A stretch of 64,000 bases of DNA from a virus (IMGVR_UViG_3300027740_000003:64001-128000); one strand, 5' to 3'. Shown: positions 15,261 to 63,947, counted from the first letter of the stretch. Translations and numbers: made by a program. The notes: generated by a model from the letters alone, not told the origin.

Positions 15261-15333
15261 TAGCAGTGCTTGGCCTTGCACCAAGATCTCCTGGCCTTAA
15301 GACCAGTCGCTTTAACAAATAAGCTACACTGCT
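15261..15333 (-). tRNA. Degenerate tRNA-like gene, anticodon ambiguous (TAA or TTA)
   Basis: Acceptor AGCAGTG/CACTGCT, D stem GCTT/AAGC, arm CTGGT-CTTAAG-GCCAG (6-nt loop), T arm CTTGG-TGCAAGG-CCAAG. Confidence 0.5.
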
Positions 15334-31454: not shown

Positions 31455-33812
31455 TGCTCTTCACCTTACCTAATGAACTCTTTTTATTTCTCTAGAACCA
31501 GTTTATAACTCCATTGAAAATCAAGCTCCTCATTGTCCTCCCCAGGCCAATCAGGATCTCGATCCCACGCAACCATCACGGAAAGATTATTGTCCTCTAC
31601 AACAGCCACCCGGCCTTTTAAACAATAGTCCTTCCGATGCTGAACCCTATCGCCAACTTTAAAAGTTGTTGACTCTACAGATGAACCTAACATTATCACC
31701 TACTATCTGCCACTTGGCCATTTAGTCTTTTTTAACTGCCACAGCCCCACATTTTTTACAAATCCAATCCTTGTCAGAAGGATTGCCAACATCCGTGCAC
31801 CCTAGAGTCTCAATATAGTTCCCCTCTGAATCTATAACCTGATCCTCTTGTACACAACATGATACAATAAACAGCTTGTGCTCAGAACTGTTAGGACATA
31901 TTGTTTTCATTTTCACTCCGAATAATAACAGTCAAACCAAGGCCCGCTTCTCCTGGTCCGACGTTTTCCTTCTGCTTTTGTACACGTTCTCGAACTTGTC
32001 TCGGGATTCTTGCAATGACCTTGAGCCATTGCTAAAGTCTGGTTCCGAAACAAAATGTACGCTCTTCCACTGTTTTGGAATTTGCGCACAATTTTGTACG
32101 ACATTTTATTCCTCCCCTTCAAAAATGGCCCAGTTGTATCCTTCGGCTGGCATATACCAGATAAACAGGATCCCAAACATAAACACCAGTGCGGCTGGCG
32201 GCATCCACCACCACAAAGCCACAGCAACCATTCCCGCAATACTACTCAGAAGAATCGAATCCATATATCCCTTTCAAGATGGAGGATCATCAATTAACAT
32301 ATAATGATCTACATCACATGCCTCAGACCAAATACGCATTTCTAATTATGCTAAATGAGCTGAGTTTTTTTGTTAGCTACCTGGCGGGTTCTCAACCAAC
32401 ATGTAGTATTCTACATTTGGAACGATGAATCGAAGAGTCTTTTTCGGGCATGGCGGGCATGGAACCTCGATCTCATAAACGAAATAGAAACTATATTCGG
32501 AATCACCTAGATATGTTATTACAAGTCCAAAATAGATTTTCCCTCCAGAAGAAAATAGACACCTCTTCTCTGTTTCTCTATTCTTCTCTGTTTCTTCGGG
32601 AGGGTTATCTTCTACACTTTTCCATTGCATTTGTTTTATTCCTTCTTTACAAACTTCCATGAATCATTTCGTAAAATGAGCACATTCTACATCTTCATCT
32701 TCGTCTTCCCAAAAAGATATTTCACCAAGACTCCCCACGGAAAAATGATCCGCCTTCACTTTAACCAGATCATTCAGAGTATCTCCTTCCAACTTTACAA
32801 GAAATGTCTTCATATATCTTTTCTATTCTATTGTTTATATGCAAAAGGACACTTCTTGTGGCACCCTTCCCCACATTCACAATACCCTTCGGCAATGTCA
32901 ACACATTCCCAACCACTCTTCTCCGGAAATCCACACTGCCGGTGAGAACACATCCCGCTTTTCTCTCTTTCTCCACAAGCCATATTAGCCCTTCCTTGCC
33001 CCCTCACTGCCTCTCTGAGAGGCTTTTGCACCACCTAGGCCCCACTGGCCCAGCCAGACGAAAACCCCTCACAGCGGCTTCTGGAGCCGCTCCCGGAGCT
33101 GGTTCTCAAACAGCCGATGACATTTGGAAAGCCTGTTGTATTTGCCTATGTCTTTTCCGTGATATTCTTTGTATAGAGACATGTTCCCAAACTGGGAACA
33201 ATTTGTCTGATCAAGGTTGCTATTAGCATAGGTCTGGAAATGTGGACACTCCCGAGAACAATATTGCCCCCGGTCCCCACAGACAACTATGTCAACACTA
33301 TAGGTTAGTTTTATGTCTTCCATTTTAACTCATGATCTCGTCAATAAATGTACAGCTATAATAAGCATTGCTATACACCAAAATATAAACGCCACCGAGC
33401 CGCAATAATCATGCGAAAACAATGCTTGCCATTTGTATTGACGCTTCCTGTCGCCACTCTTTGCCAACTCCTCCGGACTTTCCAAAGGAACTACAGAAAT
33501 GTATCTTACCTTCTCTGGGTCAACAAGGTTGTTATTGGTATATGCGTCGGCAGCATCAAACGCCTCTTCCTCAGAGTCATATGGTCCTGCAACACTCTGA
33601 AAATCATCCGCCCCCGACCCGAAAAACACAATCACATGTTTAATGAATCCTGCCGATCCTCCTAAGGTTGGCTCTGCCATGTTCTTAACCTGTCCCGCCA
33701 TTTAACTGGCGCAAAAAAATTGGGGGCAACCGGTTTCCCTACGAAGCCCTCCACCACTTAACTAGATGCACCATTGCGCCTAGTAAAGTCTTTTTACCTA
33801 CATATAGGTTAG

Positions 33813-34149
33813 TGTAGGTGCCGGGAGTCGAACCCGGATCCGCGAACCAATGCAAGACACCATCATTCACAAGCTTAGGTTCATATCCTAGAACCAGGAT
33901 CCCACTCCCAGGGATTAGGTTTGCCCCTTATTGTCCTCGACCCGTTATATTGAGGCCCTTACGGGTTCAGTCCGTATGGTTTGCACCTTCCAAAATATCC
34001 AGACTTATCTCTTGGAAAATGTGACTTATGCCGCAGCAGCAGTCAGGTCTGCGTTATCGTTTGCAGTTGTTTACGACCCATTGATAAGTGGATAGGCGCC
34101 ACTTGCTTGCAGATGCCTCTTTCAGTCCCCGTCGAAACCAATCACCCAC
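33813..34149 (-). ncRNA. ssrA: tmRNA; tag peptide (A)ANDNADLTAAAA*
   Basis: Acceptor GTGGGTG/CACCTAC with G3-U70, 5' GGTTTCGACGGGG, T arm CCGGG-TTCGACT-CCCGG, resume codon GCA AAC GAT AAC... at 34064-34026 ending in TAA. Confidence 0.95.
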
Positions 34150-42643: not shown

Positions 42644-43102
42644 TCATGGCTCCTCTTCTTCTGCACAAGCACTGTTTTGCTTGTACTCATACCAACTTCC
42701 TAGAACTTGAAATCCTTCACAGCTGTACATTGATACAGCTGACATTAAATCACACTTGCCAGATGTATGCCCCAATCCGTAGAAATGCCCTACCTCATGG
42801 GCAAGCACCAACGCCCCGTCATACCGCAATGCCTCCGGCTGGGCTTCCGGATCAATCCATATCTCCCCTCGGGTAAGGTTCGCTTTCCCAAGTCCAGATC
42901 CGGAAAGCTCCTTTACACCTACCAATATGGACCCTTCCCCACACCCTTCCTCTGTCCCCCATATTGCTTCCGTTAACTCCAGTTCACAGTCCTGGATCTC
43001 AGCAGAAGGACAGAGGCGAATCTTCTCCCCTAAAGAGAAGGTTTCTACAGAAGCACCTGAACACCCTACAAGGAAGAGAGCCGCGAAGAGCTTAAAAGAC
43101 AT
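42644..43102 (-). CDS. Matrixin-like (metzincin) metalloprotease lipoprotein
   Basis: Lipobox LVGC; HExxHxxGxxH motif (HEVGHFYGLGH) followed by Met-turn DLMS. Confidence 0.8.
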   Translation of the reverse strand: MSFKLFAALFLVGCSGASVETFSLGEKIRLCPSAEIQDCELELTEAIWGTEEGCGEGSILVGVKELSGSGLGKANLTRGEIWIDPEAQPEALRYDGALVLAHEVGHFYGLGHTSGKCDLMSAVSMYSCEGFQVLGSWYEYKQNSACAEEEEP

Positions 43103-51097: not shown

Positions 51098-51252
51098 TAA
51101 GTAGTTGAAATGATTAAGGAAGTGGTAAGTAGTTGAAATGATTAAAGAAGAAAGAATGTAGTATGTTGAAATGATTAAAGAAGAAAGAATGTAGTATAGA
51201 AAGAAAAAGAAAGTAGTGATAATGTAAAAGAAAAAATAGAAATGGGATGATA
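51098..51252. repeat. C-free (+ strand) tract with direct repeats
   Basis: 155 nt with no C on +; perfect 33-nt tandem duplication 51132-51164/51165-51197; AAGTAGTTGAAATGATTAA at 51099 and 51127. Confidence 0.85.
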
Positions 51253-51431: not shown

Positions 51432-51716
51432 TTATTCTATCAGGTCTTTAATGATAGAGCAAGAAGGGCAGAGAATGGCCAAGAATTTTCTAAATGGCAT
51501 ATAGCCTGGGGAGATATAAAGGCAAGCTTTACCGAAGGTTAATTTTGCTGAGGTTGGGGAATTAATATCGCAGGTAGTTTTTCTATATTTACCATCTCCG
51601 ATATTAAGTTTAATGAGGACAGATTGACCAACAATGATGGGAGAATTACAGGAGGAGCATTTAAGTGGGAGAGAGTTCATTCTATGATATTTTTTATATT
51701 GTAGCAATCGGGGCAA
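51432..51716 (-). CDS. Split Zn-ribbon protein with IKDII tag
   Basis: CSSC...LCPSCSIIKDLIE*. Confidence 0.8.
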   Translation of the reverse strand: MPRLLQYKKYHRMNSLPLKCSSCNSPIIVGQSVLIKLNIGDGKYRKTTCDINSPTSAKLTFGKACLYISPGYMPFRKFLAILCPSCSIIKDLIE

Positions 51717-51967
51717 AGTAAGGGGAAGGCTCCAGATTTAGGGAGGTCAGATTCAATAAATATTTCGAACCAATAACCTTTCCATAGAATATAAGAATAC
51801 CACCAAGCTATACAGCTAGAAGATACAAATTTACAAGAGGAGCATTGGTACATTATTATATGTGTATTACAGGCAGAGCATTTATAATAAGATTGAGAAT
51901 CACAGGATTGAGCCTCAATGAAGATGAAGTGATGATCTTTCTTAGCATTATCTGGGAGGGGGATCAT
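51677..51967 (-). CDS. Cys-rich Zn-ribbon protein with IKDII tag
   Basis: CSAC, CSSC...LCPDCYNIKNIIE*. Confidence 0.8.
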   Translation of the reverse strand: MIPLPDNAKKDHHFIFIEAQSCDSQSYYKCSACNTHIIMYQCSSCKFVSSSCIAWWYSYILWKGYWFEIFIESDLPKSGAFPLLCPDCYNIKNIIE

Positions 51968-52015
51968 TGATTTGGTACCAAGGGAGAAAGCGTGGCAATA
52001 TATTAAAAATAATAA

Positions 52016-52231
52016 CTACGTTATTATATTTTTAATGTTAAAACAATCTTGACAGAGGAAGCTATTAAGAATAAAGTTTTTTGGATCAACTATTTCGTAG
52101 GGGCCGATGAATAATTTATTATTCATAAATTTAATTTTGACATAAGAAAATCTGAAAGAGAGGGTATCATGACAGAAGAAGGAATCATTATTCTTTATAG
52201 GGGAGAGGCAAGATGAGCAGAGATAATTCAT
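52016..52231 (-). CDS. Split Zn-ribbon protein with IKDII tag
   Basis: MNYLCSSC...LCQDCFNIKNIIT*. Confidence 0.8.
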   Translation of the reverse strand: MNYLCSSCLSPIKNNDSFFCHDTLSFRFSYVKIKFMNNKLFIGPYEIVDPKNFILNSFLCQDCFNIKNIIT

Positions 52232-52540
52232 TGAATGATATCTTTAATTATCAAGTTGGTTAAAATTTCATCTACGAAGTCTTTATAATCTGGGCAGAGG
52301 GCAATAATTAGTGGATGATATTTAGCCTGATATATTGCTAATTTTTGAAGTTCTTCTGATAGAAAAAGGGTCTTGTTTAACAGCTGCTAATTTTATTTCT
52401 TTTGAAGGATTGTGTATATATTGAATATTATATCCATCTTGTTTAACTGCTTTTAAACAATCAGATTCATTTTCCGGATCGAAGCCTAATGTTTTATTTA
52501 TTAATTGTTTTAATTGTTTTAATTGTTTAATATTATTCAT
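52228..52540 (-). pseudogene. Frameshifted 22-aa-repeat (DUF4116-like) protein with IKDII tag
   Basis: Frame 1 MNNIKQL...LGFDPENESDCL...QDPFSI; another frame continues SEELQKLAIYQAKYHPLIIALCPDYKDFVDEILTNLIIKDIIQ* (stop at 52228). Confidence 0.75.
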
Positions 52541-52942
52541 ATTATGATATCTCTAATCAAGCATTCGGAGCAGGAGAGCTGGGAAAGTTGATCGACAGTC
52601 TTCCAAGAGCAAGCTGGACAATAGTAATAGAAGCCATTAGGACTAAATTCTGAAGGATCATCGAAAACAAGGCACAAGACATTACAATTGGAGCATTTAT
52701 AAAGTGATATGTTTTGATATTCTTCAAACAGGAAGAAATCATGATCTTTGACAGCATTTTAAAGGTACAATAAGGCAGGCGTCGGGATATCCTTTTGTAG
52801 TACGGTCGTAAAAAAGGTTATTATTTTTATTTTTAATTTTTTGCCAACCACAAAATCTGGAATTTGGTGGTTTATATCTAAAGACGAAGAAGTAATTAGA
52901 AGATATAGGGGAGAGGCAAGAGGAGCAAGAGTAATTAATCAT
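52537..52942 (-). pseudogene. Fused/frameshifted pair of Zn-ribbon genes
   Basis: 52739-52942 starts MINYSCSSC but lacks the tag; an overlapping ATG-less frame reads NAVKDHDFFLFEE...YKCSNC...CPAC...LSCSECLIRDIII* (stop at 52537), similar to 51677-51967. Confidence 0.6.
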
Positions 52943-53169
52943 TGAATAATATCCTTAATTAGGTAGCAATCTGAGCAAAGGATGGTAGAGATTTCATATT
53001 TTTGGAAGGGGAGCAATATAAAAGAACCTGTATTTTGATAATAAAATTTTCCATTTTTAACACCTATTTTTTGCCAACCCTGGCAAAATTTATTACGGAT
53101 TAGGGAGTCATTTCTAAATATGTAGAAAATGTTAGGATTAATTTTTAAAAAGCAGGATGAGCAGATCAT
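52939..53169 (-). CDS. Split Zn-ribbon protein with IKDII tag
   Basis: MICSSC...LCSDCYLIKDIIQ*. Confidence 0.8.
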   Translation of the reverse strand: MICSSCFLKINPNIFYIFRNDSLIRNKFCQGWQKIGVKNGKFYYQNTGSFILLPFQKYEISTILCSDCYLIKDIIQ

Positions 53170-53537
53170 TGGATTATATCTTTAATCACCATTTCTGTTT
53201 TAGACAAGCATTTGAAATTGTTTAAACATTCTAACAGATTATATGTTAATCTGTATAATTCATTAAATTTAATTTCGTTTTGGACAAAAAAATGTTCATC
53301 ATGATGATAGTTTAAAAAGACAGAAATATTTTTATTAGAATGATAATAGAAAGTAATTCCAATTAAGCAATTTTCTGATTCGGAGAAGATAAATGGTTTG
53401 GAGAAGAAGGAGGAATCATTTTCAATGAAGTCATTTAGTGAGAGGGAGAATTCATAAGGTTCCAGGGCTAAATTTATCTGATGGATAATTTTTTGTATAC
53501 TAGAAGGTTTTGTTAAATTAGGTTTAAGATATTTCAT
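53166..53537 (-). CDS. Hypothetical protein with IKDII tag (non-Zn, non-repeat)
   Basis: Ends LSKTEMVIKDIIQ*. Confidence 0.75.
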   Translation of the reverse strand: MKYLKPNLTKPSSIQKIIHQINLALEPYEFSLSLNDFIENDSSFFSKPFIFSESENCLIGITFYYHSNKNISVFLNYHHDEHFFVQNEIKFNELYRLTYNLLECLNNFKCLSKTEMVIKDIIQ

Positions 53538-53728
53538 TGGATAATATCTTTAATCATGAGGCAATTAGGACATAGGAAGGTTCTATTTTCTAGAAGTTGT
53601 TTACAATGGGTGAATATTTTTGTCCAAGAAATATTAATTATCTCCTTTGAATAAACAGCAATAGAAACCCAATTATCGGCCAAATCAAGAGATATTTGAT
53701 CATGGCAAGAAGAGCAAGTTAAAATCAT
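53534..53728 (-). CDS. Split Zn-ribbon protein with IKDII tag; close paralog of 56400-56621
   Basis: MILTCSSC...LLENRTFLCPNCLMIKDIIQ*. Confidence 0.8.
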   Translation of the reverse strand: MILTCSSCHDQISLDLADNWVSIAVYSKEIINISWTKIFTHCKQLLENRTFLCPNCLMIKDIIQ

Positions 53729-53922
53729 TTAATTATATTTCTTATGACAAAGCATTCTGGGCACAAGAATTTAATATATGGTCGTGCAGAGTGGTTTTTA
53801 AAAGAAGCTGAATCGAAAAAGCTTTCTGTCATTTCAAAGAAACTAGAAGAGTAATGGTTATTACAAAAGAACCAGCTAGTATTTTTATTATTTTCTATTT
53901 TGTGGCAAGATGAGCAGATCAT
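53725..53922 (-). CDS. Split Zn-ribbon protein with IKDII tag
   Basis: MICSSC...LCPECFVIRNIIK*. Confidence 0.8.
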   Translation of the reverse strand: MICSSCHKIENNKNTSWFFCNNHYSSSFFEMTESFFDSASFKNHSARPYIKFLCPECFVIRNIIK

Positions 53923-54053
53923 TCTATTATGTCCTTAATTATGTAGCAATCTGGACAAAGAGCAACAACACTGTCAAAAATATCACTAGCTGCATGGAAT
54001 CTTTCATTGCCCAAATTGGATCTTTTGCATGAGTCGCATATTTCTTTTTTTAT
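53919..54053 (-). CDS. Unannotated 44-aa Zn-ribbon mini-protein with IKDII tag, ATA at the start position
   Basis: IKKEICDSCKRSNLGNERFHAASDIFDSVVALCPDCYIIKDIIE*; overlaps its neighbours by ATAA upstream and ATGA downstream. Confidence 0.6.
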   Translation of the reverse strand: MKKEICDSCKRSNLGNERFHAASDIFDSVVALCPDCYIIKDIIE

Positions 54054-54373
54054 TCTATTATATCTTTAATTATAAGATTGGTCATAATTTCATCTGCAAA
54101 GTCTTCATAATCCGGGCATAACATTATTACTTTAATATCATATTTAGATTGTTTTATTGCTAATTTTTGAAGTTCCTCTGAAGGGTTTTTAATATATCTA
54201 ATAGAATATGCATATTGTTTAACCGCTAATAATTGCATTTCTTCTGAGGGGTTCTTTATAAATTGAACAGACCATCCATTTTCTTTTACAGCTTTTAAAC
54301 ACTCTGATTCATTTTCCGGATCAAAACCCAAATTTTTAGCAATTAACTTATTTAATTGTTTTTTATTATTCAT
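54050..54373 (-). CDS. 22-aa helical-repeat (DUF4116-like) protein, 1 full repeat plus caps, IKDII tag
   Basis: LGFDPENESECLKAVK...KNPSEE...LCPDYEDFADEIMTNLIIKDIIE*. Confidence 0.8.
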   Translation of the reverse strand: MNNKKQLNKLIAKNLGFDPENESECLKAVKENGWSVQFIKNPSEEMQLLAVKQYAYSIRYIKNPSEELQKLAIKQSKYDIKVIMLCPDYEDFADEIMTNLIIKDIIE

Positions 54374-55689
54374 TCTATGATATCTTTAATAACGAGGTTG
54401 TCAAGGATTTGGGAGACAAAGTAATCAGGAAGGTTGCGCAAGTCAAGGGAGGAGATAAATTTAATATCGAATTTAGAATTATATATAGCCAATTGTTTAA
54501 TATCGGGTCCCGGGTTTTTTATAAATCTAATGCTTTTATAATTTATTTCTATGGCAATTTTCTGAATTTGTTTAGAAGGTTTGGAGATATATTTGATAAC
54601 ATCAGGATCTTGGGACACGGCTAATTTCTGAATTTGTTTAGAAGGTTTAGGAACACGTTTGATAAGATCAGAATCTTTGGATATAGCAATTTCCTGAACA
54701 AGTTCTGATGGGTTTTTAATATGAATTAAAGCATTTGGATTTGAATTAACGGCAATAATGTTTAAATCTTCTGTTTGGTCATTTAAATATTCTATAAACT
54801 CGCCGTCTTGTTTTAGCGCAAGTTTCCACAATTTTTTTGAAAGAGTTATATTTTCATTTGACAGTAAAGTTTCGATAGCGGCTGAATTTTCAGATTTCAC
54901 CACCATTTCTTTAATAATTTCGGAAGGATCATTAATATGATTAATAGCTTCTGGTTTAGATTTTACTGCGAGTTGTTTAAAACTTTCGGAAGGATTTTCT
55001 ATAAATTCAACAAGTTCTCCATTTTTAGAAAGAGCCAGGGTAATAATTTTATCAGAAGGATTTTTAATAAAAAAGATATTATATGGAAATTTTTTAACTG
55101 CCAGTTCTTGAATTTCCTTGGATGGATTTTTGATATATTGGAACATCTCTGGATTTAAAGAGATGGCATATTTTTGTAATTTTCTAGAAGGTTTTTTAAT
55201 AAATCTTATTGAATAAGGATCATTTTTAATTGCCAACATTTTTAATTTTTCAGATGGTTTTTTTATCTGTTGTATAGACAAGCCATCAGATGAAACCGCG
55301 ATAAGTTTTTGTTCTTCTGTTGGTTTTATAATATATGGCAATATATATAAAGGATCTATTTTCAGCATAGCATTGACAACATTTACTGATGGATTTTTAA
55401 TTACATGATAATTGTATGATTTTAAAATATTATTATTTATTGCATAAATTTGTGCTTTTTCTGCAAATCTATTCAATAGTGCATTCAGTTGTGTAGGTGT
55501 GTCTGAAAACGCTCTTGCTTCTTCGACGTGTTTTAAATATTCTATTTGTAATCTTATTGAAGGATTTTTGATATATTTTATATTATTTATATCGTCCTGC
55601 AAGTGTATATTGGTTAGATTATCTATCCACTGAATTGAATTTGGGTTATGTTTTAGAGCAATGGTTTGTAATTTTTCTAGAGGTTTCAT
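54370..55689 (-). CDS. 22-aa helical-repeat (DUF4116-like) protein, about 14 repeats, IKDII tag
   Basis: Repeats of type KNPSxExQxLAVxxxxxxIxYI; ends ILDNLVIKDIIE*. Confidence 0.85.
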   Translation of the reverse strand: MKPLEKLQTIALKHNPNSIQWIDNLTNIHLQDDINNIKYIKNPSIRLQIEYLKHVEEARAFSDTPTQLNALLNRFAEKAQIYAINNNILKSYNYHVIKNPSVNVVNAMLKIDPLYILPYIIKPTEEQKLIAVSSDGLSIQQIKKPSEKLKMLAIKNDPYSIRFIKKPSRKLQKYAISLNPEMFQYIKNPSKEIQELAVKKFPYNIFFIKNPSDKIITLALSKNGELVEFIENPSESFKQLAVKSKPEAINHINDPSEIIKEMVVKSENSAAIETLLSNENITLSKKLWKLALKQDGEFIEYLNDQTEDLNIIAVNSNPNALIHIKNPSELVQEIAISKDSDLIKRVPKPSKQIQKLAVSQDPDVIKYISKPSKQIQKIAIEINYKSIRFIKNPGPDIKQLAIYNSKFDIKFISSLDLRNLPDYFVSQILDNLVIKDIIE

Positions 55690-55760
55690 GAAATATGAGC
55701 AAGGAAACCCCCAGCCTTGTGCCAGAGGTTATTGACTGTATTATGTTTCTTATAGAAAAT

Positions 55761-55979
55761 TTACTCTATAATATCTTTAATAATGAAACAATCATGGCAC
55801 ATAATTGAGAAACTGTCTTCTCCGCCGCATTCTTGGATACAGGCTTGGATAGGGATATCACATTTAGAATATTGAGATAGTTTAGATTGTAGGGAAAGCA
55901 AAGAGGCCCAACCGTCCTGGGATTCATAGCGCCAAGACAATTCATTATTATATTCGGCATTACAGGACAAGCATTTCAT
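55761..55979 (-). CDS. Split Zn-ribbon protein with IKDII tag
   Basis: MKCLSC...MCHDCFIIKDIIE*. Confidence 0.8.
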   Translation of the reverse strand: MKCLSCNAEYNNELSWRYESQDGWASLLSLQSKLSQYSKCDIPIQACIQECGGEDSFSIMCHDCFIIKDIIE

Positions 55980-56167
55980 TCAACATCTTTTATATTATGG
56001 CAAGAAGGGCACATTAAAGGGATAGAATCAAGAATACGTGGAAGTGCGGTAGGGGAGACCCAAGGGATAAGAGGTTTAAGGGAAGATATTCTAATCCATT
56101 CAGATTTGAAAAAAGCAAACCATTTTTTATCCAGAGGCGATTCAGAGTTGCAGAATTTACATTTCAT
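55976..56167 (-). CDS. Split Zn-ribbon protein with variant tag
   Basis: MKCKFC...MCPSCHNIKDVE*. Confidence 0.75.
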   Translation of the reverse strand: MKCKFCNSESPLDKKWFAFFKSEWIRISSLKPLIPWVSPTALPRILDSIPLMCPSCHNIKDVE

Positions 56168-56403
56168 TCAATTATGTCTTTTAAATGCCAGCAATCTTGG
56201 CAAAGAATGGTAGAAAGTTGATATTTATTGAATAAATTTTTAGTATTTTTGTTATGAATATTAACATAATTAAAGCTGGTTTGATATATTTCATTATCAT
56301 TTAATTCAAAAAAGCAATATATTTTACCTCCAGGGGCTCCACAATCTGCATAAAAAGATTTAAGATTTTGGGCAAAACAGGAAGAGCAGATATAATTAAT
56401 CAT
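56164..56403 (-). CDS. Split Zn-ribbon protein with IKDII tag
   Basis: MINYICSSC...LCQDCWHLKDIIE*. Confidence 0.8.
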   Translation of the reverse strand: MINYICSSCFAQNLKSFYADCGAPGGKIYCFFELNDNEIYQTSFNYVNIHNKNTKNLFNKYQLSTILCQDCWHLKDIIE

Positions 56404-56621
56404 TGTATTATATCTTTAATTATTAAACATTTGGGACAAAGGATGGTTCTGTTTTCTAGCAAAGCTTTATAATTTTCAAATGTTAATGTATAAAGAATAT
56501 CGATTAATTGAACCTCTGTTTCGAAACGAGAAAGAGACACCCATCCTTCTGCCAATGACACCCATTCTTCTACCAATTCAGCAGATATCCTATCACGACA
56601 AGAAGAGCAAGTTAAAATCAT
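56400..56621 (-). CDS. Split Zn-ribbon protein with IKDII tag
   Basis: MILTCSSC...LLENRTILCPKCLIIKDIIQ*. Confidence 0.8.
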   Translation of the reverse strand: MILTCSSCRDRISAELVEEWVSLAEGWVSLSRFETEVQLIDILYTLTFENYKALLENRTILCPKCLIIKDIIQ

Positions 56622-57283
56622 TCAATAATATCTTTTATAATTAAATTGTTATATATTTCTTCAGCAAAATCTTTTGCAAAATCTTTATAGTCGGGACATA
56701 ATAATATTATGTTTATATCATATCCAGACTGTTCTATTGCAGCTTTTTGAACTTCCTTACAAGGATTTTTTATATATTCAATAGAAGGCGGATTTTGTTT
56801 AACTGCTTCTAATTGTAATTTTTCTGAAGGATTTTTTATATATTCAATAGAAAATGCATTTTGTTTAATAGCTTCTAATTGCACTTCCTTAGAAGGATTT
56901 TTTATATATTCAATAGAAAATGCATTTTGTTTAACTGCTTCTAATTTTACTTTCTTACAAGGATTTTTTATATATCGAATAGAATGCCCAAATTCTTTTA
57001 CAGCTTCTAATTGAACCTCTTCGGAAGGATCTTTTATATATTGAATAGAATTTCCGCTTTGTTTAACTGCTTCTAATTTTACTTCCTTAGAAGGTTTTTT
57101 TATATGCATAATTGAATGCCCATCTTGTTTAACAGCTTCTAATTGAACTTCTTTAGAAGGGTTATTTATATGTCGAATATTAAATCCTTTTTGTTTAACC
57201 GTTTTTAAACAATCAGATTCATTTTTTGGATCAAATCCCAAATGTTTATCAATTAATTTATTTAATTCTTTTTCATAGTTCAT
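56618..57283 (-). CDS. 22-aa helical-repeat (DUF4116-like) protein, 6 full repeats plus caps, IKDII tag
   Basis: LGFDPKNESDCLK...(NPSKEVQLEAVKQ)n...LCPDYKDFAKDFAEEIYNNLIIKDIIE*. Confidence 0.85.
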   Translation of the reverse strand: MNYEKELNKLIDKHLGFDPKNESDCLKTVKQKGFNIRHINNPSKEVQLEAVKQDGHSIMHIKKPSKEVKLEAVKQSGNSIQYIKDPSEEVQLEAVKEFGHSIRYIKNPCKKVKLEAVKQNAFSIEYIKNPSKEVQLEAIKQNAFSIEYIKNPSEKLQLEAVKQNPPSIEYIKNPCKEVQKAAIEQSGYDINIILLCPDYKDFAKDFAEEIYNNLIIKDIIE

Positions 57284-57492
57284 TGAATGATATCCTTAAT
57301 CATTTTACAAGTTTCGCACATAAAACTATTACTATTTGTTTTAAATAGTATTGTACTTATAGTTTCTCCCAAATTTGTATCATAGTGTTTTAATTTAATA
57401 TGATATTCCTGTTCGGCAGGAGAAATTATTATATACCACTCTTTATTATAGAAAACAAATTTTTTACAAGAGGAACAGATCATTTCCACCAC
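57280..57492 (-). CDS. Split Zn-ribbon protein with IKDII tag
   Basis: MVEMICSSC...MCETCKMIKDIIQ*. Confidence 0.8.
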   Translation of the reverse strand: MVEMICSSCKKFVFYNKEWYIIISPAEQEYHIKLKHYDTNLGETISTILFKTNSNSFMCETCKMIKDIIQ

Positions 57493-57743
57493 ATATAATC
57501 ACAATCAGCCCAACGAATTTCATAATGATATTTAGACCAGAATAAACCTTTAAAAGGTTTTGACACTTGAAACCCTACATCTTCCAACTTAAGAATTACT
57601 TTTTTACTCAATGTTGGAACATTAATATAACTCATTGATTGATATGCCGCCTTTCTGCATTTTTTCGAAATAATTCTGTATTCTTCCATTTCTTCTTTAT
57701 TTAAACGCCTCATTAGTTCTAAACACTCTTTTTGTTCAGGCAT
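57480..57743 (-). CDS. Hypothetical protein (no tag)
   Basis: 87-aa ORF linking the radical SAM to the tagged array by overlaps. Confidence 0.6.
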   Translation of the reverse strand: MPEQKECLELMRRLNKEEMEEYRIISKKCRKAAYQSMSYINVPTLSKKVILKLEDVGFQVSKPFKGLFWSKYHYEIRWADCDYMWWK

Positions 57744-58566
57744 TATATAATTCCTTTGTTGAAAATGAACTAGGATATACTTTCATTGTTTCTAAATCTA
57801 GGTATTTGCTTAGAATTTCGGGTTCATACATAGATACATTAAATCTTCCATCTTGCAAATATGGATAGAAGTTGGCTCCAAAAGCGATATCAGCTGGAGA
57901 ACCGACAATAGATTGTTTTAGATATTCCCAATCTATTTGTGCTTCTTTACATCTCCCCTGGGCAGAAAGAGGCAGAAGTACAAAGTATTTAATTCTATCA
58001 TGATATTCTTTGTATATAGAAGAAAATGTATCTATAGATGATTTGTCAGATATGATACAATGTAGGTTAGTGAAGATATTTTCTGCCAAGAAGGCTTCTG
58101 TGGCAGATCTCCAGAATTGTTCTAGATGAGGATGGGTTGATACAGCAACTCCTCCACAAAGCTCTTTGGTAGCCTTGAGAAGGGTTTCTGAGATATGCAT
58201 TCCGTTGGTTGTGTAGTTAGGGGTGATTCCTAGGCTCAGGCTGGCTTCTAAGACCTTTATGAAGTCAGGATGGGAAGTAGGCTCGCCTCCTCCAAAAGCG
58301 ATTTGAAAAGGCTTCTGGTTTTGAGAAAGAGGGGAGAAGAATTTGAGGAATTTATCCACAATATTTCTATCATGGGATTTAGGAACAGAAGACTGATAGC
58401 AGTAGGAGCATTTCCCCATACAATGCGAAGTAATTTTCACATCATAGAACTCTGGATATTCCAACTCATTAATCTCTTCATTTGGATTTAAGGCAAAGCG
58501 GAGGGTAGTTCCGTCTGACAGGTGAAAAGCTTTGTAATTAGATTCTGGGAATATTCTAATTTTCAT
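57736..58566 (-). CDS. Radical SAM enzyme
   Basis: CMGKCSYC, AFGGGEP, YTTNG. Confidence 0.9.
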   Translation of the reverse strand: MKIRIFPESNYKAFHLSDGTTLRFALNPNEEINELEYPEFYDVKITSHCMGKCSYCYQSSVPKSHDRNIVDKFLKFFSPLSQNQKPFQIAFGGGEPTSHPDFIKVLEASLSLGITPNYTTNGMHISETLLKATKELCGGVAVSTHPHLEQFWRSATEAFLAENIFTNLHCIISDKSSIDTFSSIYKEYHDRIKYFVLLPLSAQGRCKEAQIDWEYLKQSIVGSPADIAFGANFYPYLQDGRFNVSMYEPEILSKYLDLETMKVYPSSFSTKELYNA

Positions 58567-58607
58567 TCTAATATATCCTTATTTTTGATGGAGGATAGTT
58601 GTATACA

Positions 58608-59063
58608 TTAACATCTGTGTTCTACAGCTTCGGTAGAGTACAGGAATTTAATTGCCAGTTTGGCTAATTTTTTGTATTTTGGATCTTTTACAGTTATTTC
58701 CAATTCCGTATCACCTTCATAATATTCTTTAATTTCTTCCAACCAGCCCGGCGCTTCTATTTTGCCAGACTCAACATCTTCCAAAAGTTTAGAAATTTTA
58801 TCCTCGTCGGGGTCTCCATTGGGAGAAAGGTAAGTGTCATCCATACCATTATAAATGGCATCTACAGCCATATCCCAAACCAAATCTGTATTGCTAACAA
58901 TTTTTACATTAAAAATTTCATCGCAAGTATTTCCCGTTCCCATCAAAGTAAGCATTTCGTTAATTAGGGCTTTAAATGGTTTGATGGAACCCTCTGATTT
59001 AGTGTATATAGTAGTAGAAGAGTTTGTGATTAAACTTGTTATGGAATGTAGTTTGATTTTCAT
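58608..59063 (-). CDS. 'SITSxITNSST' family protein, copy 4
   Basis: MKIKLHSITSLITNSSTTIYT...KYKKLAKLAIKFLYST. Confidence 0.8.
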   Translation of the reverse strand: MKIKLHSITSLITNSSTTIYTKSEGSIKPFKALINEMLTLMGTGNTCDEIFNVKIVSNTDLVWDMAVDAIYNGMDDTYLSPNGDPDEDKISKLLEDVESGKIEAPGWLEEIKEYYEGDTELEITVKDPKYKKLAKLAIKFLYSTEAVEHRC

Positions 59064-59075
59064 TGTATTTTCTTT

Positions 59076-59501
59076 TTAGCTGTAGGTGGCTTCTTGATAG
59101 GTTGAATATAGAAACTCTTGCATTTGTTTTGCAAGTTTTTTATATTTTTCATCTTTTGGAATGATATGAAGATAGGTAGACGGAGCCTCATCTGCCGTAC
59201 CTTTTTCTATTTTTTTAAACCAGGTGGGCTTATCAATTTCTCCAGCTAACACAGAATCATAAAGCTTCCTTACATCTTCTTCAGTTAATTTTTTTGGAGC
59301 GGATTTGTAATACTCTTCTGGATATTCCGACAAAACTACCGTTTTAAACACATCGTCAAATTTGTATGGTAGGTTAAATGTTTCAAATATTTCATTTACC
59401 AAATTTCTTGCAGATTCTTCAGAATTTTCTGAATAAGTAAATATGGTAGTTGAAGAATTGGTTATTATTGAGGTTATTGAGTGTAGTTTCATATTATCCA
59501 T
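59076..59501 (-). CDS. 'SITSxITNSST' family protein, copy 3
   Basis: MKLHSITSIITNSSTTIFT...KYKKLAKQMQEFLYST. Confidence 0.8.
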   Translation of the reverse strand: MDNMKLHSITSIITNSSTTIFTYSENSEESARNLVNEIFETFNLPYKFDDVFKTVVLSEYPEEYYKSAPKKLTEEDVRKLYDSVLAGEIDKPTWFKKIEKGTADEAPSTYLHIIPKDEKYKKLAKQMQEFLYSTYQEATYS

Positions 59502-59946
59502 CCCTGAATGCTTCGTGAGAGGTTGAGTACAAGAACTTTTTAATCAGATTTGCCATATTAGCATATTCTGGCTTCTTTGGAACAAGATAAAGTGTTGTTG
59601 GATACGAATATCCATTCTCAGAATTTTCTGATTTGGCTTCAGCTTCTTCGAACCAAGTAGGTTTAGGCAAAATTCCCGCCATAACATCTTCATACAAAGA
59701 TCCTATATCAGAATTTTCATCAATTCCTTCCACCGTATTATTCTCCAAGTATTCATAATACAAATGTGAATCTCTGAAAAGAAGAACTGTAGTGAAGAAA
59801 TCATCAAAAGTTTTCCCTTCTACTCCAAGTGTTTTCAAAATTTCATTTATCATATTCTTAGCAGCTTCTCCAGAGGCATCAGAATAAGTATATATAACCG
59901 TTGAGCTATTTGTTATTATTGAGGTTATTGAATGTAGTTTTATCAT
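59494..59946 (-). CDS. 'SITSxITNSST' family protein, copy 2
   Basis: MIKLHSITSIITNSSTVIYT...EYANMANLIKKFLYST. Confidence 0.8.
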   Translation of the reverse strand: MIKLHSITSIITNSSTVIYTYSDASGEAAKNMINEILKTLGVEGKTFDDFFTTVLLFRDSHLYYEYLENNTVEGIDENSDIGSLYEDVMAGILPKPTWFEEAEAKSENSENGYSYPTTLYLVPKKPEYANMANLIKKFLYSTSHEAFRDG

Positions 59947-60380
59947 CAGTTTTCTCCTTCCTCATAAGAGGCAGAATATAGAAACAATTCTATTGTTTCG
60001 GCCAGCTTATCATATTTTGGGTCTTTTGTAGAAATGAACAAATTAGTTGATCCGGAGTCGTTTTGTTCGACATAATTAAACCATGTAGGTTTTGGCGTTT
60101 TTCCTGTTTTTACATCGTAGTATAATTTATCAAAATTAGTATTTTCATCAACTCCTTCTATAGGATGATAGCCCGCATAATCAGAATATCTCCAAGAGGA
60201 ACTGCTTAATAGAACCACTTGAAAAACATCATCGAATTTTAAAGGAATATTAAACGAGACAAACAGTTCTTCCACCATTTTTCTAAAAGCCTCCTCACAG
60301 TTTTCTGATTTGGTATAAATGGTAGTTGAGCTGTTGGTAATTAATGATGTTATCGAATGCACTGGTATTTCAATTAACAT
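59946..60380 (-). CDS. 'SITSxITNSST' family protein, copy 1
   Basis: PVHSITSLITNSSTTIYT...KYDKLAETIELFLYSA. Confidence 0.8.
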   Translation of the reverse strand: MLIEIPVHSITSLITNSSTTIYTKSENCEEAFRKMVEELFVSFNIPLKFDDVFQVVLLSSSSWRYSDYAGYHPIEGVDENTNFDKLYYDVKTGKTPKPTWFNYVEQNDSGSTNLFISTKDPKYDKLAETIELFLYSASYEEGEN

Positions 60381-60400
60381 GCGTGGCCTCCAATCTGTCC

Positions 60401-60464
60401 AACGTAATCATCCGGCCCAGGGATGTCAAGTAGAGTTGACACACCGCAGGAAAGTGAGTATGTT
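60401..60464. promoter_or_regulatory. Back-to-back divergent promoters
   Basis: Minus: TTGACA(60429-60424)-N17-TACGTT. Plus: TTGACA(60436-60441)-N17-TATGTT. Located exactly at the strand switch. Confidence 0.75.
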
Positions 60465-60496
60465 CATGGACATGGAGAACATCCAGGAGCAATAAA

Positions 60497-60745
60497 ATGA
60501 ATAAAGTATATGTTGTAATAAAAGATGAAGTTGTAGAGAAGGTTGAATTTGAAAGAAGTGTAGCTCTAGAGCTGGCAAAACAGTTAGCGGGCGTAGAGGC
60601 AGGCATTTCTTTAGCGGACGTCTCAGTATGGGAGGCAGAAGCGGGCGGAAAGCCAACCATGATCTATAGTGTGTCATGGGAGGCAACCGGACCGTTGGAA
60701 CCCCTGATATTCGTTGGAAGCCCAAGCATATCTCCTCAATCATAA
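60497..60745 (+). CDS. Hypothetical protein, first gene of the rightward operon
   Basis: AGGAG SD, ATG at 60497. Confidence 0.65.
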   Translation: MNKVYVVIKDEVVEKVEFERSVALELAKQLAGVEAGISLADVSVWEAEAGGKPTMIYSVSWEATGPLEPLIFVGSPSISPQS

Positions 60746-60753
60746 AGAATAAA

Positions 60754-61089
60754 ATGAAACATATTTTTAATTTTTTAATTTGGTTTATGCAAAACAGCCC
60801 AGATACAAGTGAATTTATTAAGAAAAAACGATTAGTACAAAAATCTATAATAAAACTAATACGAACAGACGGTTCTCTTATTGAAGATATTGAAAATTTA
60901 GAGTTGCAATTAATAGCGGTTAAACAAAACATATATTCTATTCAATATATAAAAGATCCTTCCGAAGAAGCGCAATTAGAAGCAGTTAAAAATTATCCGC
61001 CCATATTAGATTATATAGAAGATTTTATAAATGGTAAAATTTGTGAAAAAATAAAAGACATGTTGGTTATAAAGGATTTAATTCAATAA
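60754..61089 (+). CDS. Short 22-aa-repeat protein with IKDII tag
   Basis: LQLIAVKQNIYSIQYIKDPSEEAQLEAVKN; ends MLVIKDLIQ*; likely start MKHIF at 60754. Confidence 0.75.
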   Translation: MKHIFNFLIWFMQNSPDTSEFIKKKRLVQKSIIKLIRTDGSLIEDIENLELQLIAVKQNIYSIQYIKDPSEEAQLEAVKNYPPILDYIEDFINGKICEKIKDMLVIKDLIQ

Positions 61090-61150
61090 AGAACTTCAGT
61101 TATTAACAAAGAGGCATGATCAAAATCAGGATTAGTAATGGGTCTAATTC

Positions 61151-61834
61151 TTGCTGTGTTATGGGGCCATTGCTATAAAGCGGTTGACAGAAGGCCTGGC
61201 GAAGGTTAGGTTTGAGGGCATGATGGATTTGGAAAATAATACAGGAAGTCGCTTGTTTTTGACAAGCGATCTTCATTTTGACCATACGAACATAATTAAA
61301 TATTGCGACAGGCCTTTTCCAACTGTTAAAGACATGAATGGCGCACTAATAAACAATTGGAACAGAGTGGTTGGCTCAAGTGATATCGTCTGGGTTCTCG
61401 GAGATTTTTCTTTATCTAAAGATACGATATTTATTTCTAGAACTTTGGAAAATCTTAATGGACAAAAGAATCTTATTATTGGAAACCATGATAGTAAAGT
61501 GTGCACTAATTCTCAACACTGGAATTCTGTTCATGAACTACATAACATCTGTGTAGGCAAACAAACGTTAGTGATGTGTCATTATGCTATGAAGGTATGG
61601 TATCGAAGTCATCATGGGTCGTGGCTAACGTTTGGTCATTCTCACGGTAGCTTGCCAGAAGATAATTCGTTATCTTTCGATATTGGTGTTGATGTTTGGA
61701 ATTATACCCCTGTGTCATTTGAGCAGATAAAAAGAAAAATAGAAGATAAAAAGAATGCTATTTTAGTTGGAGAAAAAGGAAATGTAAATATTAGAAACAT
61801 TAATCAGAATAATAATAAGAAGTATTGGATATGA
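61151..61834 (+). CDS. Calcineurin-like metallophosphoesterase
   Basis: SDLHFDH, LGD, GNHD, CHY, GHSH motifs. Confidence 0.88.
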   Translation: MLCYGAIAIKRLTEGLAKVRFEGMMDLENNTGSRLFLTSDLHFDHTNIIKYCDRPFPTVKDMNGALINNWNRVVGSSDIVWVLGDFSLSKDTIFISRTLENLNGQKNLIIGNHDSKVCTNSQHWNSVHELHNICVGKQTLVMCHYAMKVWYRSHHGSWLTFGHSHGSLPEDNSLSFDIGVDVWNYTPVSFEQIKRKIEDKKNAILVGEKGNVNIRNINQNNNKKYWI

Positions 61835-62041
61835 CTAAAGGTATATGTTGTTCGTCTTGTGGTAAAATTTCAAATGATTATCATGGGATGGGCAAGAACC
61901 AACATCTGGGACAAATCAATAATTTATTCACTTGATATGGAATATTATCGAAATATTCCTGAACCATTTGAAGATTATGGATATCGTGAATGTGATTTCT
62001 TTTGTCCAGATTGTATTATTATTAGAGACATAATAAAATAA
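61831..62041 (+). pseudogene. Frameshifted split Zn-ribbon gene with IKDII tag
   Basis: ATG at 61831 (ATGA overlap) gives MTKGICCSSCGKISNDYH...stop; the adjacent frame continues GWARTNIW...FFCPDCIIIRDIIK*. Confidence 0.65.
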
Positions 62042-62114
62042 AGCTCGCGTTGTTGAAATAAAGAAAACTGCCAAAAAAAGTCGAGAAACAACAAAGCTCA
62101 TAGAAACAGTTTCT

Positions 62115-62561
62115 ATGAGTCATAAATGGCAACTGAATGGTATTAAGTTTAATTTTTGTGTAAAATGTGGGTGTAAAAAAACTTACGCTGGTAGATGGCA
62201 CCGATGCATGTCCAAAACAGCTTATGGAAAGAAACTTCAACACAAGTTAGAAATAATTATAGATGGTCGTCTAACTTGGATGCCAGCATATTGCAAATGT
62301 AAAGTATGTCAACTAGAAGAAAACTCTAGACATTCAAATATTATGTGGTCAACAGACGATACTGGAATAGCATATGTTCCATATAAACTAATTAAAAATA
62401 ATAATGGAACTACGTTGGGAAAACATTGTAAATGGTGGAATTGGCAACAAGATCCTGTTAGTAAAGAGTGGGGTAAAGTTCCTATTCCCGGATTGGCTTT
62501 CTGGCCGGTCTTCTGCCTCTTGACAGAAGACGAGGCAATGATTAAAGATCTCATCCTATGA
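62115..62561 (+). CDS. Cys/His/Trp-rich protein with IKDII tag
   Basis: CVKCGC, CKCKVC; ends LTEDEAMIKDLIL*. Confidence 0.75.
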   Translation: MSHKWQLNGIKFNFCVKCGCKKTYAGRWHRCMSKTAYGKKLQHKLEIIIDGRLTWMPAYCKCKVCQLEENSRHSNIMWSTDDTGIAYVPYKLIKNNNGTTLGKHCKWWNWQQDPVSKEWGKVPIPGLAFWPVFCLLTEDEAMIKDLIL

Positions 62562-62875
62562 AACCATACACGGATCGCGAAGAAGCAAAAACTAATTTGT
62601 TGTATCAGTTTATAAATGATAATGAAACAATTAAACCAATGAAAAGTTTTATTTGTTGTCTTGGAAGTGAATATGATAATTTTGACTTTGATTTATATGA
62701 TATGGCACACGAATTAGTAAAAGAAGGAAAACTTGTTTCAGTTAAAATTTATATTCCAGATTCATATCAATTAAATGAAACTCGTGGAGAAAAAGATTTA
62801 ATAGAATGGATTCTTCCTCCCGGTTCTAAAGTCTTATCCGAGGATGAATTAATAATTAGAGATATAATTGAATAA
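62558..62875 (+). CDS. Hypothetical protein with IKDII tag
   Basis: Ends LSEDELIIRDIIE*. Confidence 0.75.
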   Translation: MKPYTDREEAKTNLLYQFINDNETIKPMKSFICCLGSEYDNFDFDLYDMAHELVKEGKLVSVKIYIPDSYQLNETRGEKDLIEWILPPGSKVLSEDELIIRDIIE

Positions 62876-62886
62876 TAAGGACATTA

Positions 62887-63153
62887 ATGAAAAACAAAAC
62901 CAATGCATTTGATTCCTTGGAAAAGTTAATTGACAAATGGAAAAGGGATAACAAACTAGAATCAACGGAAGATATTTCTAAAGTTGTAGAAAGTCTTTTG
63001 GTATATTCTGTTGTTTTAGTTGCAAGATCTAACAATGATGATTTTGAGATTGAGGGAGATGTATCTGGCGGACCAAACGAAGATACGTACCGATTTAATT
63101 TTACTGTAAAAAAAGAAGAAAAAAGAATTCCTGAGCCACAAGATATCAATTAA
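62887..63153 (+). CDS. Hypothetical protein (no tag)
   Basis: 88-aa ORF in the rightward operon. Confidence 0.6.
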   Translation: MKNKTNAFDSLEKLIDKWKRDNKLESTEDISKVVESLLVYSVVLVARSNNDDFEIEGDVSGGPNEDTYRFNFTVKKEEKRIPEPQDIN

Positions 63154-63155
63154 TA

Positions 63156-63947
63156 ATGTCTAAATCAAAAGAAAAACAACTAAAAAAATTAATTGTGGAG
63201 AAATTGGGTTTTGATCCAGAAGATGAATCTAATTATTTAGAAGCATGTAAAAAACATGGATTTCGTATTAGGTTTATAAAGAACCCTTCTAAAGAAGTAC
63301 AATTAGAAGCAGTTAAACAAAATGGAAATTCTATTCAATATATAAATAACCCTTCTAAAGAAATAAAACTAGCAGCTGTTAAAGAAAATGCATATTCTAT
63401 TCAATATATAAAGAACCCTTCTAAAGAAGTTCAATTAGAAGCTGTTAAAGAAAATGGAAATTCTATTCAATATATAAAGAACCCTTCTAAAGAAATAAAA
63501 TTAGAAGCAGTTAAACAAAACGGAGGATCTATATGTTATATAAAAAATCCTACTAAAGAAATTAAATTAGCATCAGTTAAACAACATGGAAATAATATTA
63601 GATATATAGAATGTCCTTCAGAAGAACTTCAGATAGAAGCAGTTAAACAAAACGGATTTTATATTGAACATATAAATTGTCCTTCAGAAAAAATACAGAC
63701 GGAAGCTGTTAAACAAAATGCATTTTCTATTGAATATATAAAAAATCCTTCAGAAGAAGTACAATTAGCAGCTGTTAAACAAGATCCATCTTCTATTCGA
63801 TTGATAAAGAACCCTTCAGAAGAAATTCAAAAGGCTGCAATAGAAGCTTCTGGATATGATGTAAAAATAATAATATTATGTTCTGATCGAGGAAAATTTG
63901 CAGAAGAAATATATAATAATTTAATTATCAAGGATATTATTGAATGA
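63156..63947 (+). CDS. 22-aa helical-repeat (DUF4116-like) protein, 8 full repeats plus caps, IKDII tag
   Basis: LGFDPEDESNYLEACK...(KNPSKEVQLEAVKQNGNSIQYI)n...FAEEIYNNLIIKDIIE*. Confidence 0.85.
   Translation: MSKSKEKQLKKLIVEKLGFDPEDESNYLEACKKHGFRIRFIKNPSKEVQLEAVKQNGNSIQYINNPSKEIKLAAVKENAYSIQYIKNPSKEVQLEAVKENGNSIQYIKNPSKEIKLEAVKQNGGSICYIKNPTKEIKLASVKQHGNNIRYIECPSEELQIEAVKQNGFYIEHINCPSEKIQTEAVKQNAFSIEYIKNPSEEVQLAAVKQDPSSIRLIKNPSEEIQKAAIEASGYDVKIIILCSDRGKFAEEIYNNLIIKDIIE

Follow-up and report, generated by a model that had tools for sequence, protein, structure and literature searches.

In bacteriophage T4, IPI-III and Alt exemplify a short capsid targeting sequence (CTS) borne by diverse, polymorphic phage defence proteins, which are small and fast-evolving and whose genes form arrays (PMC3012670). 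Encapsulation peptides of bacterial microcompartments (BMCs) are found in PduD (...LLRQIIED..., within the tag MEINEKLLRQIIEDVLRDMK) and PduP (...LIRTILSE...) (PMC5405515), and the XB peptide of SspB is RGGRPALRVVK-COOH (PMC3983244). Here we describe a C-terminal peptide, hereafter called the tag and typified by IKDIIE followed by a stop codon, that is present on many dissimilar proteins (the carriers) of a huge phage. It was first seen in a stretch of 64,000 nucleotides, referred to as the window, which corresponds to bases 64001-128000 of a 435,004-bp IMG/VR virus record (35% G+C, judged complete). The genome is that of a tailed phage with recognisable terminase, portal and major head protein, and its source DNA sits in soil metagenome runs. 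Our literature search yielded no paper describing the tag motif in this sense.

The initial annotation of the window had counted at least 23 carriers. Twenty-two stop-to-stop open reading frames (ORFs) indeed fit the pattern that it proposed, all at positions 51432-63947 and on both strands, and the variant ending IRDIII of ORF 52537-52677 brings the number to 23. The three copies reported as hidden or frameshifted are present as well (52228-52386, 53919-54041 and 52537-52677). As had also been stated, the ending is absent left of 51 kb, where none of the other ORFs of at least 30 residues in the window matches. The tag is nevertheless not a speciality of the two divergent operons at 51-64 kb, since 122 ORFs of the whole 435-kb genome end in [ILVM][KR][DN][ILVM][ILVM]x-stop, and carriers represent 107 of its 751 greedily chosen genes. 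The strict form I[KR][DN]II[EQ] occurs 90 times at the C-terminus and never internally in 140,507 residues; its C-terminal expectation from composition is 0.0006, and shuffling the last 30 residues 200 times produced not one. A chance origin of the C-terminal motif is excluded. When all ORFs of four phage records and 38 contigs were pooled, 264 of the 289 occurrences of I[KRE][DEN]I[IV] were followed by exactly one residue and the stop, three directly by the stop, and 22 were located elsewhere. The end position is therefore as strictly ruled as the sequence itself, and a C-terminal extension past the tag was found in one of about 300 carriers.

The tag had initially been described as six residues long. 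In the 122 copies, the conserved stretch extends over approximately 13 residues, L-[ST]-x-[DE]-E-[LM]-[MI]-I-K-D-I-I-E-stop, with frequencies of L 63%, I 96%, K 89%, D 89%, I 93%, I 99% and E 76%. Ile occupies positions -6, -3 and -2 in 117, 113 and 121 copies, respectively, and Leu or Val is nearly never found there. This pattern suggests a short, self-stabilised, capped amphipathic helix. S/T at -12 together with E at -9 might form an N-cap and capping box and L-13 with L/M-8 a hydrophobic staple; i/i+4 salt bridges are likewise predicted, and one face would consist of M/I-7, I-6, I-3 and I-2. The AlphaFold2 model of one carrier of the His/Cys3 zinc-finger family places a helix at the tag, residues 87-96. 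In Cys4 carriers, the second CPxC knuckle is found at -12/-9, and the fourth ligand of the His/Cys3 family is at -11.

The codons of the tag vary synonymously (Ile ATA/ATT/ATC, Lys AAA/AAG, Asp GAT/GAC) in near background proportions, codon positions 1 and 2 hardly vary, and past the stop the 122 copies have no conserved base. Because conservation has a three-base periodicity and nothing is kept past the stop, the target of selection is the peptide together with its exact point of termination, as had been proposed from the codon variation. An RNA- or DNA-level element was rejected as the main cause for the same reasons, and since perfect tags occur without a downstream gene. However, the codon-level claim has to be amended in one respect, in that the Lys-Asp codons are also under nucleotide-level selection: they double as a ribosome-binding site and, with the stop, supply the following gene with a stop-start overlap. 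Where a downstream start is found between -12 and +25 nt, AAG accounts for 53% of the Lys codons of the tag; its share is 26% otherwise and 11% in the bodies of these genes. TGA serves as the stop in 77 of the 122 copies and a GAA-TGA ending is frequent; AAG-GAT then puts AAGGA 13-14 nt before the overlapping ATG, where the Shine-Dalgarno (SD)-like motifs of the 435-kb phage peak. This role does not explain the tag, because it persists in about 25 carriers that have no gene close downstream, AAA is used in half of the copies, and L-T-x-D-E lies outside the SD zone. A -10-like TATAAT within GAT-ATA-AT was also considered as a promoter; it is too near the next ATG to serve it.

The tag is carried by DUF4116 solenoids, His/Cys3 and Cys4 zinc fingers, a helix-turn-helix (HTH) protein and many orphans. 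After removal of the last 14 residues, 117 carriers of the 435-kb genome fell into 72 BLAST clusters, and 305 carriers from all sources into 167, although many singleton clusters are surely remote paralogues. With a repeat hidden Markov model, two to 10 DUF4116 repeats were detected in 17 ORFs of the 435-kb genome, and all intact DUF4116 proteins of this phage are tagged. In a collection of 5.8 billion proteins, the tail is present on five of the 120 nearest DUF4116 homologues and the other 115 end otherwise. The tag is thus not intrinsic to the DUF4116 family, and its addition is specific to the phage clade. At least one graft onto a new body, DUF4116, is certain because all intact phage copies are tagged as opposed to five of 120 nearest homologues elsewhere. 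The claim that the scaffolds are unrelated is borne out by these data. Moreover, one carrier family exists both standalone (window 62558-62875) and fused to an XRE-type HTH domain. Among 76 homologous pairs between the 435-kb genome and other sources, identity is 40% in the body, 64% at positions -13 to -8 and 84% in the last seven residues.

The His/Cys3 family offers a different picture, since in this case the tag is not the free appendage that had been imagined. In its 119 paralogues, the only near-invariant columns are His10, Cys36, Cys39, Cys87, Ile92 and Ile96. In the AlphaFold2 model, the helix 87-96 begins at Cys87, with a predicted local distance difference test (pLDDT) score of 84-89, and the variable middle part scores below 50. 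Searches of the PDB and the ESM Atlas with the modelled structure of a His/Cys3 carrier gave no significant match, and an Atlas feature search with the 105-residue carrier of the window gave weak leads only.

The comparison across relatives comprises short contigs and one complete relative, a phage of 458,729 bp. The latter shares 244 genes in synteny with the 435-kb phage, its major head protein is 82.5% identical, and an IMG/VR pattern scan followed by whole-record counts gave approximately 100 carriers. Its -5/-4 pairs include RE (21), KD (14), KE (7), KN (5) and MG (4), and its last residue is most often E (43) or K (22). Seven carriers are found on a 28.7-kb fragment, and tag arrays are present on 38 metagenome contigs, those tested being of the same clade. 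A scan of 185,579 species genomes for M-IKDIIE-stop returned five chance-like hits; a cellular origin of the tag was rejected, the tagged frames behind these hits being, where found, ORFs of 26-29 residues. Because species-genome hits are few, a His/Cys3 profile retrieved six proteins from a large protein collection, and the contigs tested belong to the clade, the tag system is clade-restricted and rare. A complete myovirus of 36.9 kb, recovered in the same series of samples and equipped with a terminase, portal, sheath and baseplate of its own, has two DUF4116-type carriers, which are 44% identical to each other and both end in LMIKDIIE. All that it has in common with the huge phage are tail-fibre segments (64-67% identity), RuvC, a glucosaminidase, a matrixin-like lipoprotein and a 223-residue protein. 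Of note, a 388-residue polysaccharide pyruvyl transferase (L070:3276-4442) on metagenome contig LSQX01249443.1, which is unrelated to the clade, ends in ...FDKMIKDIIE. This tail may be due to chance or may have been transferred.

A partner for the tag was sought among the genes of the phages. DUF4116 was discarded as the receptor, as the 459-kb relative has approximately 100 carriers and no DUF4116 repeat. The 223-residue protein (genome 130347-131018; L087:2347-3018) is the sole uncharacterised protein common to the three complete tag-bearing genomes. It was rejected as a tag-specific hub, since its family of 1,822 clusters in a library of 1.84 billion proteins is far wider than the tag. It is encoded in a lysis cassette, and its AlphaFold2 model, in which residues 139-188 have very low confidence, gave weak matches to C-type-lectin/formylglycine-generating enzyme folds (Z 4-4.8); a Foldseek search with it gave no match. 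The diversity-generating retroelement targets TvpA, Mtd and TaqVP are among these weak fold matches. An AAA+ gene immediately preceding two carriers (genome 19975-21330) was also dismissed as a partner, having no orthologue in the 459-kb phage. Both huge phages have two or more classic AAA proteins. In addition, each has a gene for a full-length ClpP of cellular type (205 residues), which matches the Pfam model from end to end at 180 and 204 bits; in the 435-kb phage it is located at genome 410663-411280 and is followed by that of a DksA/TraR zinc-finger protein (411285-411719); both genes are kept in the 459-kb relative. The same holds for an FtsK/SpoIIIE-like ATPase without membrane and gamma domains (genome 406218-407219) and for an initiation factor IF-1 homologue (genome 128495-128719). 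Searches of the phages for PDZ domains gave no hit. The S77 protease family (PF03420) had no match in them, but the positive control was silent too.

We favour the reading, which in our view has close to an even chance of being correct, that the tag is a portable docking or address helix read by one common partner, probably host-encoded. Through duplication and fusion, a 13-residue C-terminal module would have become attached to many unrelated small accessory proteins in one huge-phage clade. Its invariant Ile/Met face at the free C-terminus would dock all carriers on one receptor, and the variable bodies, which range from zinc fingers and DUF4116 solenoids to HTH and orphan folds, would give different specificities. 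We infer both docking in trans and its target. Judging from the alignment, the invariance of the Ile residues seems to exceed structural need, given the 72 body clusters, and the clade-wide retention of the tag in the 459-kb relative supports docking, as do the strict end position, the selection at the level of the peptide and the graft onto DUF4116. The partner is probably not phage-specific, as an unrelated myovirus keeps two carriers. Because no phage hub stands out and this small myovirus also has carriers, the reader of the tag is more likely host-encoded than phage-encoded. The initial annotation had proposed a constant docking peptide joined to variable modules: the portable module on unrelated scaffolds was found, whereas no named hub candidate could be tied to the tag.

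Several observations weigh against docking. No receptor was found among the phage-encoded candidates examined. In the His/Cys3 model, the helix starts with the fourth invariant zinc ligand and lies within the fold; unlike classical docking tails, the tag is not preceded by a flexible linker. In the 459-kb phage II..II is constant while positions -5, -4 and -1 drift, as is expected of a buried structural face. The conservation of Lys-Asp is partly due to the ribosome-binding role. It is difficult to see why more than 100 ligands should compete for one site, except where an enzyme or a machine acts as the receptor. Finally, the carriers of the myovirus could have arrived with the neighbouring lysis genes.

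It is also conceivable, although we place it somewhat on the doubtful side of even, that the tag serves a proteome-wide address system, in which one C-terminal helix would send more than 100 accessory proteins per genome, the products of about a sixth of the genes, to a single machine of the host or the virus. By analogy, the zinc-finger and solenoid bodies would then be a diversifying library of target binders, making the system a counterpart of ankyrin (ANK)/PRANC proteins or a C-terminal code for loading into a capsid or compartment. The main rival, rather unlikely in our opinion, is an explanation without any partner. The helix would be the structural core of a fast-evolving mini-domain superfamily, made of a zinc knuckle or N-capped turn and a C-terminal helix, and diversifying selection would have erased all recognisable similarity between the bodies. 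Carriers with DUF4116 or HTH domains would be fusions with mini-domain remnants, and the ribosome-binding site and ATGA stop-start overlap in the same codons would hold the end position. The start of the His/Cys3 helix at the invariant Cys87, with high model confidence, speaks for such a core, all the more so as zinc ligands and Ile92/Ile96 are the sole near-invariant columns of that family and the 459-kb phage fixes only the II..II face. So does the 'LCPDW' piece retained by DUF4116 carriers, which is like the 'LCPDC' knuckle of Cys4 carriers; and the AAG enrichment near downstream starts, AAGGA at the SD peak and TGA in 77 of 122 copies agree with the proposed positional constraint. However, buried sites normally swap I, L, V and M, and Ile is present here at 93-99% across dissimilar bodies, many of which have no cysteine near the tag (LTEDELMIKDIIE type). 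The approximately 25 carriers without a nearby downstream gene have a perfect tag, untagged genes of the same operons are coupled without it, and C-terminal extensions, which a purely structural helix would tolerate, are almost absent.

The presence of ClpP raises the question of proteolysis. The tail might tether an adaptor library to a host ClpX/ClpA-type unfoldase and the phage ClpP, with the variable bodies carrying host targets to the protease, or it might be a degron timing removal. We regard this version of the docking model, which has parallels in bacterial SspB with its XB peptide and in the ANK/PRANC adaptors of poxviruses, as improbable. It is consistent with full-length ClpP being encoded outside the head module, which has its own protease domain, in both huge phages, with the tmRNA (transfer-messenger RNA) gene of the 435-kb phage, and with the substrate-adaptor architecture of repeat or zinc-finger bodies with a constant tail. 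In addition, the extreme C-terminal position is the rule for ssrA-type degrons and the SspB XB peptide (PMC3983244). Nevertheless, the three genomes have no ClpX/ClpA-type ATPase (AAA_2), the tag does not resemble LAA or LRVVK, and a stable capped helix abutting a zinc site would be a poor pore-engaging degron. Furthermore, the 37-kb myovirus is devoid of ClpP, and the link consists of gene presence only. As for a loading signal that sends carriers to the procapsid core for injection with the DNA, or into a host or viral compartment, we find it quite improbable. Diverse bodies share a constant peptide as in the T4 CTS, and the I-I-E end of the tag resembles the I-x-E end left by T4-type prohead proteases. 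The last seven residues also fit the LLRQIIE of PduD in the pattern h-h-[KR]-x-I-I-E (PMC5405515). Yet the head genes of the 37-kb myovirus are unrelated, the phages have neither BMC shell (PF00936, none in the three genomes with a positive control that was detected) nor encapsulin genes among those searched, more than 100 cargo species far exceed known cases, and encapsulation peptides require a linker rather than an exact terminus. It is very improbable that identical helices simply bundle with one another into mixed oligomers or a condensate without a separate receptor. By sequence inspection, hydrophobic residues occupy a-, d-, e- and g-like helix positions, and self-association would explain the two carriers of a small myovirus without a phage hub; but 10-12 residues are short for a stable bundle, the polar positions carry no specificity code, and no computational support was obtained, the complex prediction with four copies of one His/Cys3 carrier giving a score of 0.00 with the fold of the partner uncertain.

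Returning to the window, its carriers comprise five or six DUF4116 repeat proteins (PF13475; 46.8 and 81.4 bits for a gathering cut-off of 24.9) and about 12 Cys4 or His/Cys zinc-binding mini-proteins, and the remaining ones had no match in family searches. The right end of the window is AT-rich (29-35% G+C) and the DNA just left of it has 42-51% G+C. A 33-bp tandem repeat of 2.2 copies (51128-51197) is found at the sharp G+C boundary, from 48% to 30%, that ends the minus-strand array. The DUF4116 proteins of this array are of 107 residues (54050..54373, NLIIKDIIE), 439 residues (54370..55689, NLVIKDIIE; the largest carrier) and 221 residues (56618..57283, NLIIKDIIE). A fourth gene on this strand (52228..52540) is broken by an out-of-frame internal deletion, with its N-terminal part at 52322-52540 and the tagged C-terminal part (IIKDIIQ) in another frame at 52228-52386. 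DUF4116 genes split in this way, the tag being on a C-terminal piece out of frame with an N-terminal ORF that lacks it, are also present at genome 150169-150707, 151965-152340 and 175290-176140; these genes and the one at 52228-52540 may be pseudogenes, assembly errors or programmed frameshifts.

The other minus-strand carriers are small. The last gene of the array encodes a 94-residue Cys-rich protein (51432..51716, IIKDLIE), next to a 96-residue member of the His/Cys zinc-finger family, BLAST cluster 1 (51677..51967, NIKNIIE). Zinc-ribbon ORFs with four cysteines are found at 52016..52231 (71 residues, NIKNIIT), 52939..53169 (76 residues, LIKDIIQ), 53534..53728 (64 residues, MIKDIIQ) and 53725..53922 (65 residues, VIRNIIK). 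Further Cys4 ORFs are those of 46 residues with the variant end LIRDIII (52537..52677), 63 residues with the shortened variant NIKDVE (55976..56167), 79 residues (56164..56403, HLKDIIE), 73 residues (56400..56621, IIKDIIQ), which is a paralogue of 53534-53728, and 70 residues (57280..57492, MIKDIIQ), together with a mini-ORF of about 40 residues that has ATA where its paralogues have ATG (53919..54041 within the frame 53919-54065, IIKDIIE). A 72-residue Cys-rich ORF (55761..55979, FIIKDIIE) and a 123-residue orphan without zinc motif (53166..53537), whose end is SKTEMVIKDIIQ, complete the array. On the plus strand, the first tagged gene encodes a 137-residue DUF4116-like protein (60676..61089, MLVIKDLIQ). 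It is followed by a 60-residue ORF with a CPDC knuckle (61859..62041, IIRDIIK), a 148-residue Cys-rich ORF ending in LTEDEAMIKDLIL (62115..62561), whose homologue in the 459-kb phage ends in IEDIIV, a 105-residue ORF ending in LSEDELIIRDIIE (62558..62875), the one with a paralogue fused to an HTH domain elsewhere in the genome, and a 263-residue DUF4116 protein with nine 22-residue repeats (63156..63947, NLIIKDIIE).

Four untagged paralogues of 141-151 residues are encoded in tandem on the minus strand in the interval between the tagged arrays (58608-60380). They each begin with ...HSITS(L/I)ITNSST..., and they have neither a Pfam or PHROG match nor a homologue in the 459-kb relative. The array also includes a gene for a 276-residue radical-SAM enzyme (57736-58566, minus strand) with a CxxxCxxC motif and without SPASM domain; the 459-kb phage has a homologous radical-SAM protein of 495 residues with a tag-like end of its own, ...IIKEIV. 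On the plus strand, a 227-residue ORF (61151-61834) contains metallophosphoesterase-like motifs (DLHFDH, GDFS, GNHD and GHSHG), a Pfam search with it returning nothing at E<=0.01, and is kept in the 459-kb phage at 44% identity. Farther left are a 152-residue lipoprotein-like matrixin/M10 zinc metallopeptidase (42644-43102, minus strand), 33% identical to its counterpart in the 37-kb myovirus, and eight tRNA genes (14650-42190), one of which (15260-15333) has an odd two-base anticodon call. The tmRNA gene is located at 33810-34149 and encodes the tag peptide ANDNADLTAAAA, which ends in AAAA.

If the C-terminal tag is an address label, one peptide would make the roles of about 120 orphan genes accessible to experiment together. 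One pull-down, or one localisation assay, could then show the destination of a sixth of the proteome of a huge phage, and the tag would be a handle for routing foreign proteins to the same place. It would also mean that phages, like poxviruses and giant viruses, assemble large adaptor libraries by combining a constant docking module with variable binders. Should the tag instead be structural, the phages would harbour a mini-domain superfamily with more than 100 copies per genome, in which the last codons provide a helix, a ribosome-binding site and a stop-start overlap. This would be an unusual design of gene cassettes in phages.

Because at least one defining feature of each fails, the tag is assigned to none of the known systems with which we compared it. 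Like the T4 CTS, it is a conserved terminal peptide that is the sole shared part of diverse small phage proteins. The CTS is an address rather than a part of the fold; it is N-terminal, is removed at (L/I)-x-E by the S77 prohead protease and is present on a handful of proteins. In contrast, the phage tag forms the very C-terminus, lacks a cleavage site and occurs on about 120 proteins. With the BMC peptides of PduD, PduP and EutC, in which one helix on unrelated proteins routes them to one shell protein, it shares the features of a short amphipathic terminal helix and the h-h-x-x-h-h pattern. However, most BMC peptides are N-terminal, they do not depend on a free terminus, and their genes are neighbours of shell genes, which the three phage genomes lack. 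They are also separated from the protein by a poorly conserved flexible linker, whereas the tag comes directly after a zinc ligand (-9/-12 or -11) or N-cap, and the His/Cys3 model shows no linker of low confidence.

The recognition of an extreme C-terminus, with one machine reading many clients, brings the tag close to the SspB XB peptide and ssrA in terms of position, although IKDIIE is unlike LRVVK or LAA and the tag is modelled as a structured helix. T4 gp43, gp33 and gp55 are unrelated proteins that share a hydrophobic/acidic terminal peptide plugging into one ring. Their tails have aromatic residues and belong to replication and transcription proteins, in contrast with a tag consensus devoid of aromatics and with orphan carriers, none of them a DNA enzyme, in which Pfam scans revealed no replication domains. 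PRANC is a three-helix F-box that binds eukaryotic Skp1. Pfam scans of the carriers showed no F-box, and the tag amounts to one helix of about 12 residues in a phage of a bacterial host. Nevertheless, the poxvirus ankyrin/PRANC proteins and the repeat families of giant viruses resemble the tag system in their massive paralogue expansion and constant C-terminal module, a likeness that fits the DUF4116 carriers best.

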